Assembly: GCA_037138755.1 (NCBI GenBank)
Contig: JBAXHT010000001.1
Span: 31,805 to 95,804 of the forward strand
Direction of reading: 5' to 3'
Origin: Armatimonadota bacterium
GTDB taxonomy: Bacteria > Armatimonadota > Fimbriimonadia > Fimbriimonadales > Fimbriimonadaceae
Length of the DNA stretch: 64,000 bases
Shown here piece after piece: positions 56,474 through 62,143 of the stretch. Below the pieces are notes generated by a model, which had not been told where the DNA came from, made no database searches, and saw only the letters and a list, made by a program, of their open reading frames with translations. Both the position numbers and the translations under genes were made by a program. The first letter of the stretch is position 1, and each line of letters begins with the position of its first letter.

Positions 56474-57439
56474 TCATGTCGGCTTGCGCTTTTGGATGAT
56501 CGCGTCGAGTTGGTGCTGATCAATATCCACGTTCACTTGGATCCAAAGAGGCAGGTGGTCCGACATCTGGTAGGTGTAGTCCTCCTTGCTCATGCCTCCT
56601 GCGAACAGCACCGGAATGGTTGATTCATCTTGGAAGAAGTCGAGGATTCCGCCCTTTTTCGTGAAGTTCTCCGAGTATATGGGATGGTGAAGAATCTGGT
56701 CATAACGCTTGTCCTTCTTGAGGTTCGTGCCGAACTCTTCTTGTTGGAGGGCAGTAGGGATTCGAAGGCCCCACTTGGTGATTGCCTTGAACAGCTTTCC
56801 AGTATTGTCATCGATGTTGAAGTCGCCCATCACAATGAGGTCTTTATCCTCCTTTGATTTTTCAAGCCTTTTCGCTTCGATCCAGTCCGCTAGACGCCCA
56901 AGCTCGTCAGCGCGGGCGTCAATGCTGTCTCCCCAGCGGATGTGGGAGATCAGGACAACGAAGTCGAAGTTTCCAGACTGAAAGGAGGCCATGTACGGAG
57001 CTCGCCAGAACGACTTTTCTGAAACATACTCAAAACCTTTTTTCTGCCTAGGGGGGCTGACTTCGGCAGCGAGTCCGGTGAATTGAACCGCGCGTTCGTC
57101 GTAGACGAACGCAAGACGTTCGCGATTTCCTCCGGCGTCGGGAATCATGTCAGAGTAAACACACTTCCAGTAGGGACCGAGAATCTCTAAAACCCGCGCA
57201 AGGTCCGAAAGGTTATCTCTAAGCTCGATCACGCTGACTAGATCGAACTGACCGATTATCTCCGCGATATAGTGGATCGAGGCTTGTTTGCGCTTTTGCT
57301 TGCCAAATTCACGAATGTTCCAGGTGGCGATGTTAATCGACTCATCCAGTTTCGAAGGCGGAATTTTTGCGGCTGCGATCAGTTCTCGGACTTTTGTTAG
57401 TCCGATCGCGATATCCGAAGAGACGTTACCGTGAAACAT
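56474..57439 (-). CDS. Endonuclease/exonuclease/phosphatase (EEP) family protein
   Basis: IATWNIREF, IELRD, ERLAFVYD, RAPY, SHIRWG, MGDFN, YDQI, SDHLP. Start likely ATG 57439. Confidence 0.88.
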   Translation of the reverse strand: MFHGNVSSDIAIGLTKVRELIAAAKIPPSKLDESINIATWNIREFGKQKRKQASIHYIAEIIGQFDLVSVIELRDNLSDLARVLEILGPYWKCVYSDMIPDAGGNRERLAFVYDERAVQFTGLAAEVSPPRQKKGFEYVSEKSFWRAPYMASFQSGNFDFVVLISHIRWGDSIDARADELGRLADWIEAKRLEKSKEDKDLIVMGDFNIDDNTGKLFKAITKWGLRIPTALQQEEFGTNLKKDKRYDQILHHPIYSENFTKKGGILDFFQDESTIPVLFAGGMSKEDYTYQMSDHLPLWIQVNVDIDQHQLDAIIQKRKPT

Positions 57440-57608
57440 AAGACCACTGTACAACTTTAGAAACTAATTGACAAGTCGGTGTTGACTATGTCTTAATACT
57501 CTCGCGATGCTTGTAATCCGCCGAAGCCTGTCCTTCTCGTAAGAGAACCTCCTTGAGCGCAAACGCTCAACCGCTTCGACGTAAACCAAAGACTACAAAA
57601 CAAGCAAT

Positions 57609-58796
57609 ATGCGACTTCCCAAAGACCTTTTTTCGGAGGCATTGACCCTCCCTGACTTGGCGATGGTGTACGAACTCGGCGAACGAGTGAGCACCGCCGC
57701 CCACGACCTTGCGATCCTCAAAACCGAGGATTATGCATTCAATCCAGCTGAATATGCCGCTTCCGGCGGATGCGAACTTCACGTCCGTAACGATGTGACG
57801 GGCCTCTGGCTCGCGCAGTGGAGCGACAACCACGTCCGTTTGCGACCGAAGCATGCGGCGTTCGACGTTGCCTGGCGAGGCGAAAAGCTGAGCCTGGTGT
57901 GTATTGAGCCCGACTGCGAACCTCGCTTCTGGATCGTTGCCGGAACTTCACTCGCCTTGTGCGAGCGGTTTTTCGCGACCGTCAGCGCGTGGTACTCGGC
58001 TTCCAGCGATGCCATTTCTGTTTTTGATCATGGACACTTCATGCGCGATGAGGAACTGCGAGAGGATATTTCCAATCGTTCACTTGAGTCGCTTTGCCTG
58101 ACTGACCAGATTCGATCTGAGATCCAGCGCGGGGTGATCGAGTTCTTCGGAGCAAAGGATGTTTATTCACGACACAACATTCCTTGGAAGCGAGGAGTGA
58201 TTCTGCATGGACCCCCTGGAAACGGAAAAACGCAGACCATTCAGGCGATCGTGAACCAACTGAAGCTGCCGACAATCTACGTCCGATCGCTGCATGCTAG
58301 GTGGGATTCTCCCGAGGATTGCATTCGGCTGATCTACGAACGGGCCCGGCTCGCAAGTCCGGCGATTGTCGTTCTAGAGGACATGGATGCCCTAATCACC
58401 CAAGGAAACCGATCGTACTTCCTCAACGAACTCGACGGATTCCGAAAGCTTCACGGCGTGATGACGATCGCCACGACGAACCACTTGGACAAGCTCGATG
58501 TCGCCATTCGAGATCGACCAAGTCGGTTCGATGAAAAGATCTTCTTCGACAATCCAGATCTGGAGAGTCGGACCAAGTATCTTTCCGAGGTCATTGCCAA
58601 GTGGCAACTGACCGTTCCGTCTGACAGAGTTCAAAAACTCGGCGAACAGACGAACGGATACTCGTTTGCAGGGCTACAAGAGCTGACAAGATCGGCTCTC
58701 ATGAATTCTTTGAAGAATTCAGAGGATCCTTTTGAAGGTTTGATTCCCGAAACCGTTAAGAAGAAATCCAAGGCCAAAAAGAAGAAGAGCTCCTAG
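57609..58796 (+). CDS. AAA+ ATPase (classic clade, BCS1/FtsH-like ATPase module, no protease domain)
   Basis: PWKRGVILHGPPGNGKT, Walker B VVLEDMD, NELDG, TTNHLDKLD.AI.DRPSRFD; Lys-rich tail. Confidence 0.9.
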   Translation: MRLPKDLFSEALTLPDLAMVYELGERVSTAAHDLAILKTEDYAFNPAEYAASGGCELHVRNDVTGLWLAQWSDNHVRLRPKHAAFDVAWRGEKLSLVCIEPDCEPRFWIVAGTSLALCERFFATVSAWYSASSDAISVFDHGHFMRDEELREDISNRSLESLCLTDQIRSEIQRGVIEFFGAKDVYSRHNIPWKRGVILHGPPGNGKTQTIQAIVNQLKLPTIYVRSLHARWDSPEDCIRLIYERARLASPAIVVLEDMDALITQGNRSYFLNELDGFRKLHGVMTIATTNHLDKLDVAIRDRPSRFDEKIFFDNPDLESRTKYLSEVIAKWQLTVPSDRVQKLGEQTNGYSFAGLQELTRSALMNSLKNSEDPFEGLIPETVKKKSKAKKKKSS

Positions 58797-58807
58797 CGGA
58801 GCTCTTC
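58784..58807. terminator. Hairpin/terminator between convergent genes
   Basis: GAAGAGCTCC-TAGC-GGAGCTCTTC, a perfect 10-bp stem whose loop contains the ATPase stop codon. Confidence 0.7.
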
Positions 58808-58814
58808 AATAATC

Positions 58815-59120
58815 TTAGTGGTGATCGTGGTGACCGCTTTGTGGGCCGTACCATTCGTGCTCGATATCGCGAGCGACCGTTTTGCTATAAACGAACCAGA
58901 TGTACAGGTTGATGACCGTTGCGATGATGAGGCCGATACCCATTCCACGCAGACCGCCGTCGACCGAGTAGAGGGCTAGGTCACCTTTAAGCGTCTTTGT
59001 AAAAATGGTTCCGCAGGCAAATCCGAAGACGGAGAACACGAGGAAGAGCACTCTTCCGAGGGTGCGAGCGATCTGAGCATCTTGCTCAAGCGCAGGTCGT
59101 GTTTCGTGGTTGTCAGCCAT
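58815..59120 (-). CDS. Two-TM membrane protein with a His-rich C-terminus
   Basis: Two hydrophobic helices, ends in HEWYGPQSGHHDHH, starts 16 nt downstream of the csoR stop. Confidence 0.7.
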   Translation of the reverse strand: MADNHETRPALEQDAQIARTLGRVLFLVFSVFGFACGTIFTKTLKGDLALYSVDGGLRGMGIGLIIATVINLYIWFVYSKTVARDIEHEWYGPQSGHHDHH

Positions 59121-59136
59121 ATCTATTAGATTATAT

Positions 59137-59409
59137 CTACTTGAGGAAGCGGTTGAGGGTGGTTCGCACCTCTTGTGCCTTTTCTTCAGGACTCAGTTGA
59201 TGCTCAGGACCCTCGCCGAAGACACAGTCTTCGATGTGGTGAGTGAGAAGCAGCAGCCCGAGTTGGTCGAGCGCGGCACGCAAAGCCGACACCTGAGTGA
59301 GGACGTCGACGCAGTAACGCTCCTCGTCAATCATCTTCTGGATTCCGCCGACTTGACCGGAAATGCGGGCGAGACGCTTTTTGGCGTCGGCGTAGATGTC
59401 GTTGCTCAC
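59137..59409 (-). CDS. csoR: Metal-sensing repressor, CsoR/RcnR family with CsoR Cu(I) ligands
   Basis: RLARISGQVGGIQKMIDEERYCVDVLTQVSA...HHIEDCV, with the Cys...His-x3-Cys fingerprint. Confidence 0.88.
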   Translation of the reverse strand: MSNDIYADAKKRLARISGQVGGIQKMIDEERYCVDVLTQVSALRAALDQLGLLLLTHHIEDCVFGEGPEHQLSPEEKAQEVRTTLNRFLK

Positions 59410-59451
59410 TCAACAATTATCACAAAAATGTTCGCCTAAAGAAACTTACAC

Positions 59452-59466
59452 TACCCCCCTATGGTA
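59452..59466. promoter_or_regulatory. CsoR operator
   Basis: The minus strand reads TACCATAGGGGGGTA, fitting TACC-N4-GGGGG-TA (B. subtilis copZA box TACCCTACGGGGGTA). It abuts the -10 TATATT (59467-59472). Confidence 0.8.
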
Positions 59467-59478
59467 TATATTACTGAT

Positions 59479-60192
59479 ATGAGACGAGCTTTTACCCTCA
59501 TCGAGCTTCTGGTTGTGATTGCCATTATCGCCATTCTCGCGGCGATTCTTTTCCCGGTTTTTGCCCAGGCGAAGGCCGCAGCCAAGAAGACGGCGGACCT
59601 CAGCAACATGAACCAGATTGGCAAGTCGATCTACATGTATGCCGGAGATAACGACGATCACACGATGTACGTTGACCACGAGGCAGATTTTGAGTGGTTC
59701 GTGCCGCTTTACCCTTACGTCAAAAGTAAGGACGTATTCCGCACACCGGCTTACAAAGCGAAGCCGGTGATTGACCCCGATGGGGCAACCGGACTCATCA
59801 CCCCGGACTCCGACTACTCGCTGAACGGACTGTTCTCGCACGGCGAGTCGATGACAATCAGTTCTAGTCCAGCCCAGCAGATCTCCGTGGCAGTCAGGAA
59901 CATCGAGAATTTCCATCCCGACTACCATCCCTGGCCGGGCACCGCTTGGGCGGATAGAACGACGCCTGACTGGGACGACCTTACTAAGTACGTGGGTAGC
60001 GACCACTCGGATGAGCCGGTGGAAGACTGGTTCACCGGAAGACTCTTCAGAACGCCGTGGAATAACAAGGGCTCCAACTTCAGCTTCCTAGATGGACATG
60101 CAAAGTATTACCCTTGGGAGCAGACCCTTCGGGTGAACGATCGACTACCAGGTATGCACAACGTGGACCGGATTGTGGAGAAGACGCTCTAG
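59479..60192 (+). CDS. Prepilin-type N-terminal cleavage/methylation protein with DUF1559/H-X9-DG-like C-terminus
   Basis: MRRA|[45 protein letters not shown]. Start revised to ATG 59479. Confidence 0.93.
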
Positions 60193-60635
60193 CCGCTCTT
60201 TTTGCCGGAACCAGGCTTTGGGGCGGTCTTCTTGGCCGCCTTTTTCTTTGCTTCGGCCAGGAATTCCTTCATCATCGGCTGGTCGAGACCGCCGACGGTC
60301 ATGAGGACGACCTTGCCAGCTGAGTTAATGACGACTAGAGTCGGGTAGGCACTGACTTTGTACTTTTGCGATGACTTGGTGCCCTCTTTCTCGCAGTCTT
60401 GTTTCACGACGATGAAGTCTTTGAAAATCGCCTTAGCTTCCGGAGCTTGGAAGACTTCCTTGTCCATTTGCTTGCACGGCCCACACCAAGTCGTGTAGAA
60501 ATCAACAAGAATCAACTTGCTGGTCTTTGCGGCTTCCTTCTTCGCCTTCTCAAGATCGTGACTGTACTCTGTCTTGGCAAGGCATAGAGAAGACAAAAGG
60601 ATGCCAGAGAGCAGAACGATAGTGGATCGTTTCAT
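60189..60635 (-). CDS. Exported thioredoxin-family protein
   Basis: Signal peptide, [11 protein letters not shown], cis-Pro in AYPT. Confidence 0.9.
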
Positions 60636-60673
60636 ACCTCTTATGATGCACCAAGTAAACTGTCGTTTCCCTT

Positions 60674-62143
60674 ATGAGTGAGAAGCAATTTCGCCTTTAC
60701 GATTCGCTCTCGCGTTCGGTCAAGCCGTTGACGACGCTGGAGCCAGGCCATCTACGCTTCTATTCCTGTGGACCGACGGTTTACTCCTACGCTCATATCG
60801 GTAACTTCCGGTCGTTTATCACGGCGGATTTGGTGGTCCGAACCGCGCTCTCGTTAGGTTGGAAGGTCACCTGGGTTTCAAACATCACGGACGTGGGGCA
60901 CCTCACCGAAGATGACGTTGCCGACGCCCAAGGCGAAGATAAGATGGAAAAAGCCCTGCGCTCGAAGGAAGGCGAGCAGTTCCATAACGTTTGGGAGCTC
61001 GCCGAGTTTTATGAAGACGCCTACCGGGACGACTGGAAGCAGCTCAACCTGTTGGAGCCAGATGTTCGACCTAAGGCAACTCAGCACGTTCGGGAACAGA
61101 TTCTTGCGGCAGAAGAGCTGATTGCCAAGGGCTACGCCTATGAAACCGACAGCGGGATTTACTTCTCTGTTGAGAAGTTCGCTGAATATGGGAAGCTGAG
61201 CGGGAACACGCAAGAGAACCTGCGAAAGGCGGTTCGAGACGTCGTTCTGGACGAAGAGAAGAAAGACCAGAGCGATTTCGCGATCTGGAAGAAGGACGAC
61301 AAACATCTGATGCAGTGGTTCTCGCCGTATGGATGGGGCTTTCCGGGTTGGCACATCGAGTGTTCGGTGATGGCTCGGGCATACCTCGGGGACACTATTG
61401 ACCTGCATAGCGGCGGCGAGGATAACAAGTTTCCGCACCACGAGTGCGAAATCGCGCAGAGCGAGGCTCTCACTGGAAAGCCGTTCAGCAACCACTGGAC
61501 TCATACGGCGTTTCTTCAGGTGAATGGCCAGAAGATGGCGAAGAGCGCGGGGAATTTTTACACCGTTCGCGGCCTCGTTGCCGATGGAGCCGATCCTTTG
61601 GCGATTCGATTTGCGCTAATTGGCGGGGTGTACCGGAAGCCATTCAATTTCACCGACCAGGGTCTCAGCGATGCGGCAACAAATCTGGAGCGATTCCGAC
61701 GGGCGATTGACGCGGCCTTGGCAGCGTCGGGCGAGGGCGCCGACACCCTTGGCGAAGAACTAAGCGGGCTATTTGACGACGCATTAGAAGCAATGTGCTC
61801 GGACTTGAACACGCCGGTAGCGATTGCCAAGGCGTTAGAGGGGGCCCGGCTGATTACCCGGGAAGGGTCACTGAACGCGGCGAGTGGCGCGTCTGCGAAG
61901 TCGTTCCTAGAAAAAGTCGAGCTGCTGCTAGGGATTATTGGACCACTCCAGGTTGCTCCCGAACCCACCCAGTCGCTCCCAGCTGTTGACGAAGCTAGGA
62001 TTCTGGCTCAGATCGAAGCAAGGAGGGCCGCGAAAGCCGCGAAGAATTGGGCCGAAGCCGATGCGATTCGGAATGCGCTTCTCGAAGAAGGGATCGTCCT
62101 CACGGATAATCCCGACGGGACTGTCGGCTGGTCCCGTGCATAA
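60674..62143 (+). CDS. cysS: Cysteine--tRNA ligase
   Basis: YSCGPTVYSYAHIGN, NITDVGH, GFPGWHIECS, HSGGEDNKFPHHECEIAQS, KMAKS. Confidence 0.97.
   Translation: MSEKQFRLYDSLSRSVKPLTTLEPGHLRFYSCGPTVYSYAHIGNFRSFITADLVVRTALSLGWKVTWVSNITDVGHLTEDDVADAQGEDKMEKALRSKEGEQFHNVWELAEFYEDAYRDDWKQLNLLEPDVRPKATQHVREQILAAEELIAKGYAYETDSGIYFSVEKFAEYGKLSGNTQENLRKAVRDVVLDEEKKDQSDFAIWKKDDKHLMQWFSPYGWGFPGWHIECSVMARAYLGDTIDLHSGGEDNKFPHHECEIAQSEALTGKPFSNHWTHTAFLQVNGQKMAKSAGNFYTVRGLVADGADPLAIRFALIGGVYRKPFNFTDQGLSDAATNLERFRRAIDAALAASGEGADTLGEELSGLFDDALEAMCSDLNTPVAIAKALEGARLITREGSLNAASGASAKSFLEKVELLLGIIGPLQVAPEPTQSLPAVDEARILAQIEARRAAKAAKNWAEADAIRNALLEEGIVLTDNPDGTVGWSRA

Follow-up and report, generated by a model that had tools for sequence, protein, structure and literature searches.

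Which genes does a CsoR-family repressor control in a bacterium that lacks CopZ and a classical CopA? This question is raised by a locus in a 64,000-nucleotide stretch of DNA (referred to here as the window; C1:31805-95804) from the 3.27-Mb, 97%-complete, metagenome-derived assembly of a freshwater Fimbriimonas (Armatimonadota). The csoR-1 gene (59137-59409, minus strand; GTG start), which encodes a CsoR-family repressor of 90 residues, is divergent from a prepilin-type, pilin-like gene (59479-60192, plus strand; 237 residues), and a CsoR-type operator sequence, TACCATAGGGGGGTA (59452-59466, minus strand), is located in the 69-bp region between them. The initial annotation of this DNA had proposed that the box controls, in response to copper, both the pilin-like gene and mem, a gene for a His-tailed membrane protein that follows csoR-1. 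Comparisons across the genus support the view that the box behaves as a real operator of the pilin-like gene, and the link between the two is very probably genuine.

The operator and the pilin-like promoter

The predicted promoter of the pilin-like gene (59445-59472, plus strand) consists of a -35 hexamer, CTTACA (59445-50), a 16-nt spacer and a -10 hexamer, TATATT (59467-72). It is the sole sigma-70-like promoter found by a consensus scan of positions 58700-60300. Of the 16 spacer bases, 15 belong to TACCATAGGGGGGTA, which directly adjoins the -10 hexamer. The operator reads as TAC-CATAGGGGG-GTA with a G6 tract, matching the form of a CsoR operator placed over a promoter. CsoR operators have an experimentally established signature of TAC-X9-GTA with G-tracts (PMC3902906), with which the TACC-N4-GGGGG-TA box named in the initial annotation accords. 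The coordinates given there for csoR, the 101-residue membrane protein, the pilin gene and the 15-mer agree exactly with the sequence and the list of open reading frames (ORFs), and the promoter scan likewise places the 15-mer between a weak -35 and TATATT, against the -10 and 42 nt from csoR.

On the other side of the intergenic region, the csoR promoter is predicted, by reading of the sequence, from an extended -10 element, TGTGATAAT (59416-59424, minus strand), that ends 6 nt before the GTG start codon (59409). The operator, at about -43 to -57 from the csoR start, lies beyond this element and not over it. An alternative explanation, in which the box autoregulates csoR-mem alone and the pilin-like gene is a bystander, would draw on the shared 69-bp divergent region, in which the box is 42 nt from the csoR start, and on the common occurrence of autoregulation in CsoR and RicR systems (PMC3944814; PMC3902906). 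The distribution of the box in related genomes, described below, bears directly on this alternative.

The box is not significant from the window alone: 0.23 matches to TACC-N4-GGGGGTA with up to one mismatch are expected in it, and at least one match was present in 22 of 100 shuffles. It was therefore evaluated at the genome and genus scale. Exact matches in the whole genome number only two, each directly in front of a start codon. The second one (C4:103465-103479) lies 14 nt ahead of a gene with a GTG start for a 119-residue membrane protein of the MerC family (PF03203, E=3e-18) with a CAVHC motif. A third, weaker site, CACCCTAGGGGGGTA (one mismatch; position weight matrix (PWM) score of 18.4), is located at C1:216158-216172, between a tRNA gene and a 557-residue secreted ORF that has no family match and for which a search of seven relatives returned no ortholog. 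This site is kept as a candidate for a strain-specific third regulon member.

The regulator CsoR-1

CsoR-1 matches the four-helix-bundle Trns_repr_metal domain (PF02583, E=9.8e-26) with 90 bits, compared to a cut-off of 22.8, and is encoded by the only CsoR-family gene in this genome. Its best matches in the PDB are the Cu(I) sensors from Geobacillus (4M1P) and Streptomyces lividans (4ADZ). C33, H58 and C62 align with the ligands of both structures, giving the x-C-H-C fingerprint with His58-x3-Cys62, so that the call of csoR and of its Cys/His-x3-Cys ligands in the initial annotation is borne out. An ortholog of csoR-1 is present in all 36 other genus genomes searched (57-92% identity), and Y32, C33, H58, C62 and E80 are invariant in the 29 orthologs aligned. 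An RLXR sequence on helix 1 and a conserved glutamine mediate operator binding in CsoR (PMC3902906); both are present and conserved in CsoR-1, as R12-L-A-R15 and Q39 (DVLTQVS). To judge from the C-H-C ligand set, copper is the likelier effector of CsoR-1, and Cu(I) binding would be expected to free the repressor from DNA.

Conservation of the operator upstream of pilin-like genes

The window pilin-like protein was used to search the genus for orthologs (E<=1e-40), and a PWM score of at least 15 within 120 nt upstream was required for a strong box. Exactly one ortholog was found in 29 of the 41 genus genomes. A strong box precedes 18 of the 27 orthologs that could be parsed, and in five more a weaker version sits at the same distance from the gene; for one ortholog, a contig end truncates the upstream region. 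Within the window genome, 48 proteins with a prepilin N-terminus are encoded, and the box is found before the window gene only, the upstream regions of the other 47 scoring 3.5 or less. In a maximum-likelihood tree of the prepilin-type paralogs of this genome and the pilins from the retrieved loci, the window pilin falls into a clade of 17 (support 100/99) that contains no other paralog of this genome. A clear box is found in 15 of these 17 members, and a degenerate box in the other two.

Several pilin orthologs located far from csoR, with a protein identity of 45-53%, retain the identical 15-mer (genomes G009, G015, G016, G018, G027 and G006), and the box accompanies pilin genes unlinked from csoR at six loci (L050, L052, L053, L058, L059 and L060). 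These loci contradict a bystander role of the pilin-like gene. Conversely, where csoR has no pilin neighbor (L015-L018, L022), there is no box before csoR or csoR-mem, and a promoter, TGTTATAAT, is found at the same place; the box, therefore, appears to serve the pilin gene. The spacing in the genus loci points the same way, as the box is 5-23 nt from the pilin start and 6-140 nt from the csoR start, and in the window it lies upstream of the extended -10 of csoR. Exclusive autoregulation of csoR-mem is thus extremely improbable. Conservation of the box in orthologous promoters had been named beforehand as the test on which the proposed control of the pilin-like gene could fail; the box came out conserved, being kept before single-copy orthologs of the clade genus-wide, those unlinked from csoR included.

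Two more distant orthologs, on metagenome and MAG contigs of other Fimbriimonadales (L104:2860-3000 and L108:2860-3000; 51-53% identity, GMHNVDR intact), have GTTGCAA(Y)/ATTGCAAC repeats downstream of the promoter and ahead of the start codon, a hint that another regulator acts there. We considered these repeats as the mark of a Fur/Zur-type regulon, and dropped this assignment as no comparable sites are found in the window genome. A third contig (L106) has a perfect TACCC-N5-GGGTA.

Genes downstream of the operator

To complement the search that started from the pilin gene, every exact TACC-N4-GGGGGTA site in the 41 genus genomes was retrieved and classed by the gene starting just downstream. 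Of the 47 sites, 42 are within ~50 nt upstream of the start codons of a few recurring gene classes. The pilin-like clade with a GxHN(V/I)D motif near its C-terminus accounts for 13 sites, and other pilin-like genes for four. MerC-like genes follow 14 sites and a MerT-like gene one, while six sites precede exbB-exbD-tonB operons. Two are found before COG0523 GTPase genes inserted between csoR and the His-tailed gene, and one before a third CsoR-like paralog. One site is ambiguous, with a ZIP-family gene starting 33 nt downstream and exbB at a distance of 142 nt. The remaining five, with GC-rich centers and mostly inside ORFs, belong to none of these classes. The sites support the pilin-like gene as a target, as the initial annotation had it; missed there were the MerC-like gene of this genome, as well as the exbBD-tonB, MerT-like and COG0523 genes of its relatives.

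Boxes point either way relative to the gene, and the 3' TA of the box usually doubles as the start of the -10 hexamer, which argues for a dyad repressor site and not an RNA element. The regular overlap of the box end with the TA of the -10 could also be expected if the 15-mer were a promoter element peculiar to this lineage, or were bound by a different regulator, and only resembled a CsoR operator. The enrichment of the pattern over a reversed-pattern control is modest (47 versus 31 sites), and similar TACCCCC...GGGTAT strings are found in promoters of CsoR-less relatives, for example in a tRNA promoter (L087/L088). However, the boxes match TAC-X9-GTA with the G-tract exactly, and they lie beside csoR-1 in many genomes with differing neighbors (pilin, exbB, COG0523) and in both orientations. 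In 24 sister-family genomes of the same order, all but two of which are without CsoR, the pattern is not enriched (11 sites versus 24 for the reversed control, with about half inside ORFs). Together with the status of CsoR-1 as the sole CsoR-family protein of the window genome, these observations make a CsoR-independent origin of the 15-mer very unlikely.

Some loci of relatives have additional features. In a 5.2-Mb single-contig genome of the genus (G024), boxes precede both exbB and the MerC-like gene. A COG0523 (CobW-type) GTPase gene lies between csoR and the His-tailed gene in three close relatives (L013/L014/L068; G002, G025 and G063), and an exact box is present in the 28-nt gap between csoR and this gene in L014 and L068. 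In two of these genomes (G002 and G025), there is, in addition, a second pilin-like gene, which is DUF1559-positive and has its ATG inside a box (TACCCCCC-ATG-GGTA). At L049 (G035:C19:26100-27300), the third, short CsoR-like paralog (85 residues) is clustered with a ZIP-family transporter gene and an exbB-exbD-tonB operon, and there are two boxes, one directly upstream of the paralog gene and one between the ZIP and exbB genes. This paralog may lack the first Cys ligand (PQECLEQ compared to RYCVD, as judged by eye from unaligned sequences).

The pilin-like protein

In the pilin-like protein, a class-III prepilin signal (MRRA|FTLIELLVV) and a long N-terminal helix are followed by a head of ~180 residues. 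As noted in the initial annotation, the protein contains eight His and no Cys. The prepilin N-methylation motif is recognized by PF07963 (E=2e-7) and TIGR02532 (E=8e-8), with the conserved Glu5 and the hydrophobic helix in place. The assignment as a prepilin is therefore upheld by PF07963. The further assignment to DUF1559 is not, as neither DUF1559 (PF07596) nor the NCBIfam H-X9-DG model matches at E<=0.01 in searches of Pfam and NCBIfam. The H-X9-DG motif itself is incomplete, with D205-G206 present and Asn195 at the position ten residues before D205. Among the matches listed for its homologs, PF07596 is precomputed in only 2 of 120, although close homologs carry the JGI name 'prepilin-type processing-associated H-X9-DG protein'; a second box-linked pilin clade (L061) does match PF07596 (E=1e-6). 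By curated criteria, the window protein is, on its sequence, a divergent relative of DUF1559 and not a member.

Of the 48 ORFs of this genome with a (G/A/S)FTLIELLVV prepilin N-terminus, seven short ones (140-168 residues) form a separate clade in the tree, and the rest constitute a large DUF1559-like radiation. The motifs Y54-x2-D57-x-D59-D60 and D205-G-H207-x-K209 are family-wide. A further set of residues (D112, H121, Q134, R140, D148-Y-H150-x-W152 and H227-N-x-D230) is invariant in the box-bearing clade only. The three invariant His and three invariant Asp of this clade could belong to a metal site or to a catalytic one, and binding of the metal by the head is a tentative suggestion. The AlphaFold2 model (pLDDT of 93.6) consists of a helix (residues 7-57) followed by a mixed head domain. 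Foldseek identified no significant PDB neighbor of the head beyond the pilin helix, the best, non-significant match being the FimA pilin.

A prepilin peptidase (Peptidase_A24; C1:25702-26022; 47.7 bits, above the cut-off) is encoded in the genome, and no pilus assembly genes adjoin the pilin-like gene. RNA contigs that are 100% identical over positions 59794-60072 were found in two metatranscriptomes of the study from which the genome originates. No other genuine RNA match occurs within the final 20 kb of the window. The contigs indicate that the gene is transcribed in situ, while being silent on copper.

The -10 hexamer of the pilin-like gene ends 6 nt upstream of its ATG (59479), with no Shine-Dalgarno sequence. 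The csoR and MerC-like promoters (the latter with TATCAT and a GTG start) have the same 6-nt gap between the -10 and the start codon, also with no Shine-Dalgarno sequence (window 59410-59424 and 59467-59481; C4:103480-103495). Because the geometry is shared by the three promoters, leaderless mRNAs, including ones with GTG starts, are likely in this Fimbriimonas, with the pilin-like gene among them. An ATG inside the box (59461) was considered as the main start of the pilin-like gene and rejected, as it is not conserved across the clade, whereas M(K/R)R(A/G)FTL is.

The His-tailed protein and neighboring genes

The mem gene (58815-59120, minus strand) is 16 nt downstream of csoR, in the same operon, which is closed by a predicted intrinsic terminator, GAAGAGCTCC-GCTA-GGAGCTCTTC followed by a T-run (58784-58807, minus strand), placed between mem and a convergent AAA-ATPase gene. 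The ORF agrees with the earlier description of a protein of 101 residues with two transmembrane (TM) segments and a GHHDHH end. Two hydrophobic segments are followed by a C-terminal tail, EWYGPQSGHHDHH (ending in SGHHDHH), with the conserved sequence EWYxPQ(S/A)GHH..HH. Mem has no match in Pfam or NCBIfam. A word-based search yielded only five matches, and a full HMM search 19 cluster representatives among 1.8 billion proteins, from which no family, name or function emerged.

Of 30 genus loci, 12 have the mem gene after csoR-1 (two of these with a COG0523 gene in between), as does a metagenome locus (L139), and some of the pilin orthologs are unlinked from csoR. A distant mem homolog (L140) is also not linked to csoR. 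Mem is, thus, tied to csoR by operon structure. The control of mem by the box that had been proposed initially is doubtful, given that the box lies beyond the extended -10 of csoR and is absent before csoR-mem in species that have no pilin neighbor.

A secreted thioredoxin-like gene (CGPC) and cysS adjoin csoR-1 in several species (window 60189-62143; relatives L015-L022), and the thioredoxin gene is directly upstream of csoR in loci with no pilin gene. The conserved unit here looks to be trx-csoR-mem / cysS, with the pilin gene either inserted or lost. On the other side of the module are a gene for an EEP-family endonuclease/phosphatase (56474-57454, minus strand) and one for a 395-residue AAA+ ATPase (57609-58796, plus strand), the latter with a sub-threshold match to the model of the anti-phage ATPase IteA (E=3e-16). 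These two genes are unrelated to the copper module and may constitute a defense pair.

Copper inventory and the effector of CsoR-1

No HMA domain was detected in the 97%-complete genome, which therefore has no CopZ and no classical CopA; nor does the genome encode a multicopper oxidase. One of its two P-type ATPases is MgtA-like. The other is a 633-residue IB enzyme with SPC and HEGST motifs that passes the Cd/Zn-family model and falls below the Cu-subfamily cut-off, and no CPC-type IB ATPase is present in the genome. The absence of copA and copZ, pointed out earlier for the window, consequently extends to the whole genome, in which control of a copper-efflux operon (copZA or ctpV), a trait used to define CsoR, is not found.

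The situation is different in relatives. About half of the genus possesses a second paralog, csoR2 (40-50% identical), as part of a canonical csoR2-copZ-copA operon (L096, L098, L099 and L101; for example, G001:C38:23180-25900) that is absent here; copZA in these relatives sits behind csoR2, not csoR-1. At the two csoR2 loci that were read, the upstream dyads have the form TAC-X8-GTA (ATACCCCATAGGGTAT and ATACCCCCGGAGGTAT), one base shorter than the TAC-X9-GTA of csoR-1. This difference in spacing may keep the two paralogs from cross-talk.

Given these csoR2 operons, CsoR-1 need not be the copper sensor. It may be a parallel copper sensor like RicR, or respond to another signal. A system of the same architecture could respond to Ni, Co, Zn, Cd, Hg, Ag or reactive sulfur species and have a role in metal trafficking or uptake, or in envelope stress. 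Such a reading would fit the relatives, about half of the genus, in which csoR-1 coexists with csoR2-copZ-copA and copper efflux is left to the other paralog, as well as the MerC/MerT-family importers, COG0523 GTPases, ExbB-ExbD-TonB and the ZIP-family neighbor in the regulon. In addition, the third-best PDB match of CsoR-1 is the Ni sensor InrS, which also has Cys/His/Cys ligands, and some CsoR-1 orthologs begin with MSH-, like RcnR. However, the W-position His of Ni/Co sensors is absent in CsoR-1 (MSND...) and not conserved among its orthologs. His58 is invariant in CsoR-1, unlike in the persulfide sensor CstR, which lacks this His. The invariant Y-C...H-x3-C...E residues and RLXR are typical of Cu(I) CsoRs, while RcnR has RASK (PMC3902906). 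There is also a precedent for two copper-sensing paralogs in one cell, namely CsoR and RicR of M. tuberculosis (PMC3944814). Taken together, an effector other than copper seems rather unlikely, with copper preferred.

Proposed mechanism

We consider it reasonably probable that CsoR-1 governs a RicR-like second regulon that is released by copper and has the pilin-like gene as its core target. In this model, apo CsoR-1 would bind the TAC-X9-GTA operator in the spacer and at the -10 edge of the pilin-like promoter and block RNA polymerase. Binding of the effector, most probably Cu(I), at Cys33, His58 and Cys62 would release CsoR-1, allowing transcription of the pilin-like gene, and the MerC-like promoter on C4 would be under the same operator control. 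The csoR and mem genes would be co-transcribed constitutively from their own promoter, which is probably not controlled by the box. The pilin-like product could then be processed by the prepilin peptidase of the genome and anchored in the envelope via its N-terminal helix, presenting an exposed head with the clade-invariant H121, H150, H227, D112, D148 and D230. The pilin-like, MerC-like and His-tailed proteins may, thus, provide a copper response in place of CopA, CopZ and multicopper oxidase.

A more specific version is that the prepilin-type clade is a metal-responsive envelope protein whose head, of a fold with no counterpart in the PDB, binds copper or another metal via the invariant His/Asp cluster, and that, with the MerC-like and His-tailed proteins, it forms a system for copper defense or trafficking that is independent of CopA and CopZ and is under a RicR-like CsoR paralog. 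This combination of claims is speculative, and we regard it as rather improbable in its entirety.

Several observations weigh against the copper-released regulon. The uptake-type members (MerC/MerT, ExbBD-TonB, COG0523 and the ZIP neighbor) are a poor fit to derepression by metal excess. About half of the genus has csoR2-copZ-copA with its own TAC-X8-GTA sites. No strong box is present before 9 of the 27 pilin orthologs, and the distant orthologs at L104 and L108 have another upstream repeat and no CsoR box. The head of the pilin lacks Cys as well as any Met-rich Cu(I) motif. Moreover, close relatives share promoters by descent, which makes the ortholog counts less than fully independent. The organism itself is known as an uncultured metagenome-assembled genome.

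Comparison with known systems

CsoR-1 has the same fold as the Ni/Co sensors RcnR and InrS, whose operators also contain G-tracts flanked by TA-rich dyads. It differs in having neither the N-terminal His/amine ligand nor RASK in place of RLXR. The relationship to mercury transport lies in the putatively box-controlled genes, one of the MerC family (PF03203) in this genome and one of the MerT family (PF02411) behind a box in one relative. Each of these MerC/MerT-like genes is a solitary gene preceded by a CsoR-type box. No mer operon was seen around them, with no search made for merR and merA.

Proteins of the DUF1559/H-X9-DG type are expanded in Planctomycetota and Verrucomicrobiota, as well as in Armatimonadota. 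The window pilin shares with this large family the class-III prepilin N-terminus, Y-x2-D-x-DD and the C-terminal D-G-H-x-K. It falls below the family thresholds and differs in having Asn195 for the His, a shorter length (237 residues), a clade-specific set of His and Asp residues, and the GxHN(V/I)D(R/N) motif. The operator would provide the first regulatory handle on any prepilin-type DUF1559/H-X9-DG-like protein, from a paralog-rich family that has no annotated function and is, with its 48 genes, among the largest paralog families of this genome.

With the canonical CsoR-copZA systems (B. subtilis, Geobacillus 4M1P and S. lividans 4ADZ; PMC3902906), CsoR-1 has in common the PF02583 fold, the x-C-H-C ligands, the Tyr/Glu second shell, RLXR and the Gln, together with a TAC-X9-GTA operator with G-tracts over the core promoter. 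In contrast, there is no copZ or copA here in either the regulon or the genome, and the regulated gene encodes a pilin-like envelope protein. Searches of the full-text literature yielded no report that connects CsoR with pilin-like, DUF1559, MerC-like or TonB genes, and none that deals with CsoR in Armatimonadota. What is new here is, thus, the cargo of a CsoR-family regulator (pilin-like, MerC-like and TonB-type genes), combined with the absence of CopA. Such a CsoR-family regulon would be built entirely from envelope proteins, in a bacterium with no CopA, CopZ or multicopper oxidase.

The closest parallel is found in M. tuberculosis, in which CsoR is in charge of an efflux operon, while the scattered ricR, lpqS, mymT, socAB and Rv2963 (permease) genes are regulated by its paralog RicR via a TACCC...GGGTA dyad (PMC3944814). 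The resemblance includes a second CsoR paralog beside a canonical CsoR efflux operon (in relatives only, in our case), scattered promoters overlapped by a TACCC...GGGTA dyad, and targets that are envelope or metal-binding proteins and not an efflux ATPase. The dyad differs, being TAC-X9-GTA here compared to X8 in the ricR promoter example (TACCCCGCTGGGTA), and the window genome has neither the canonical paralog nor CopA. The system proposed here belongs to Armatimonadota, and its predicted targets are prepilin-type, MerC/MerT-like, exbBD-tonB and COG0523 genes. If the proposed regulon is correct, it would extend the RicR-type two-paralog arrangement beyond Actinobacteria and widen the picture of copper handling in little-studied phyla.

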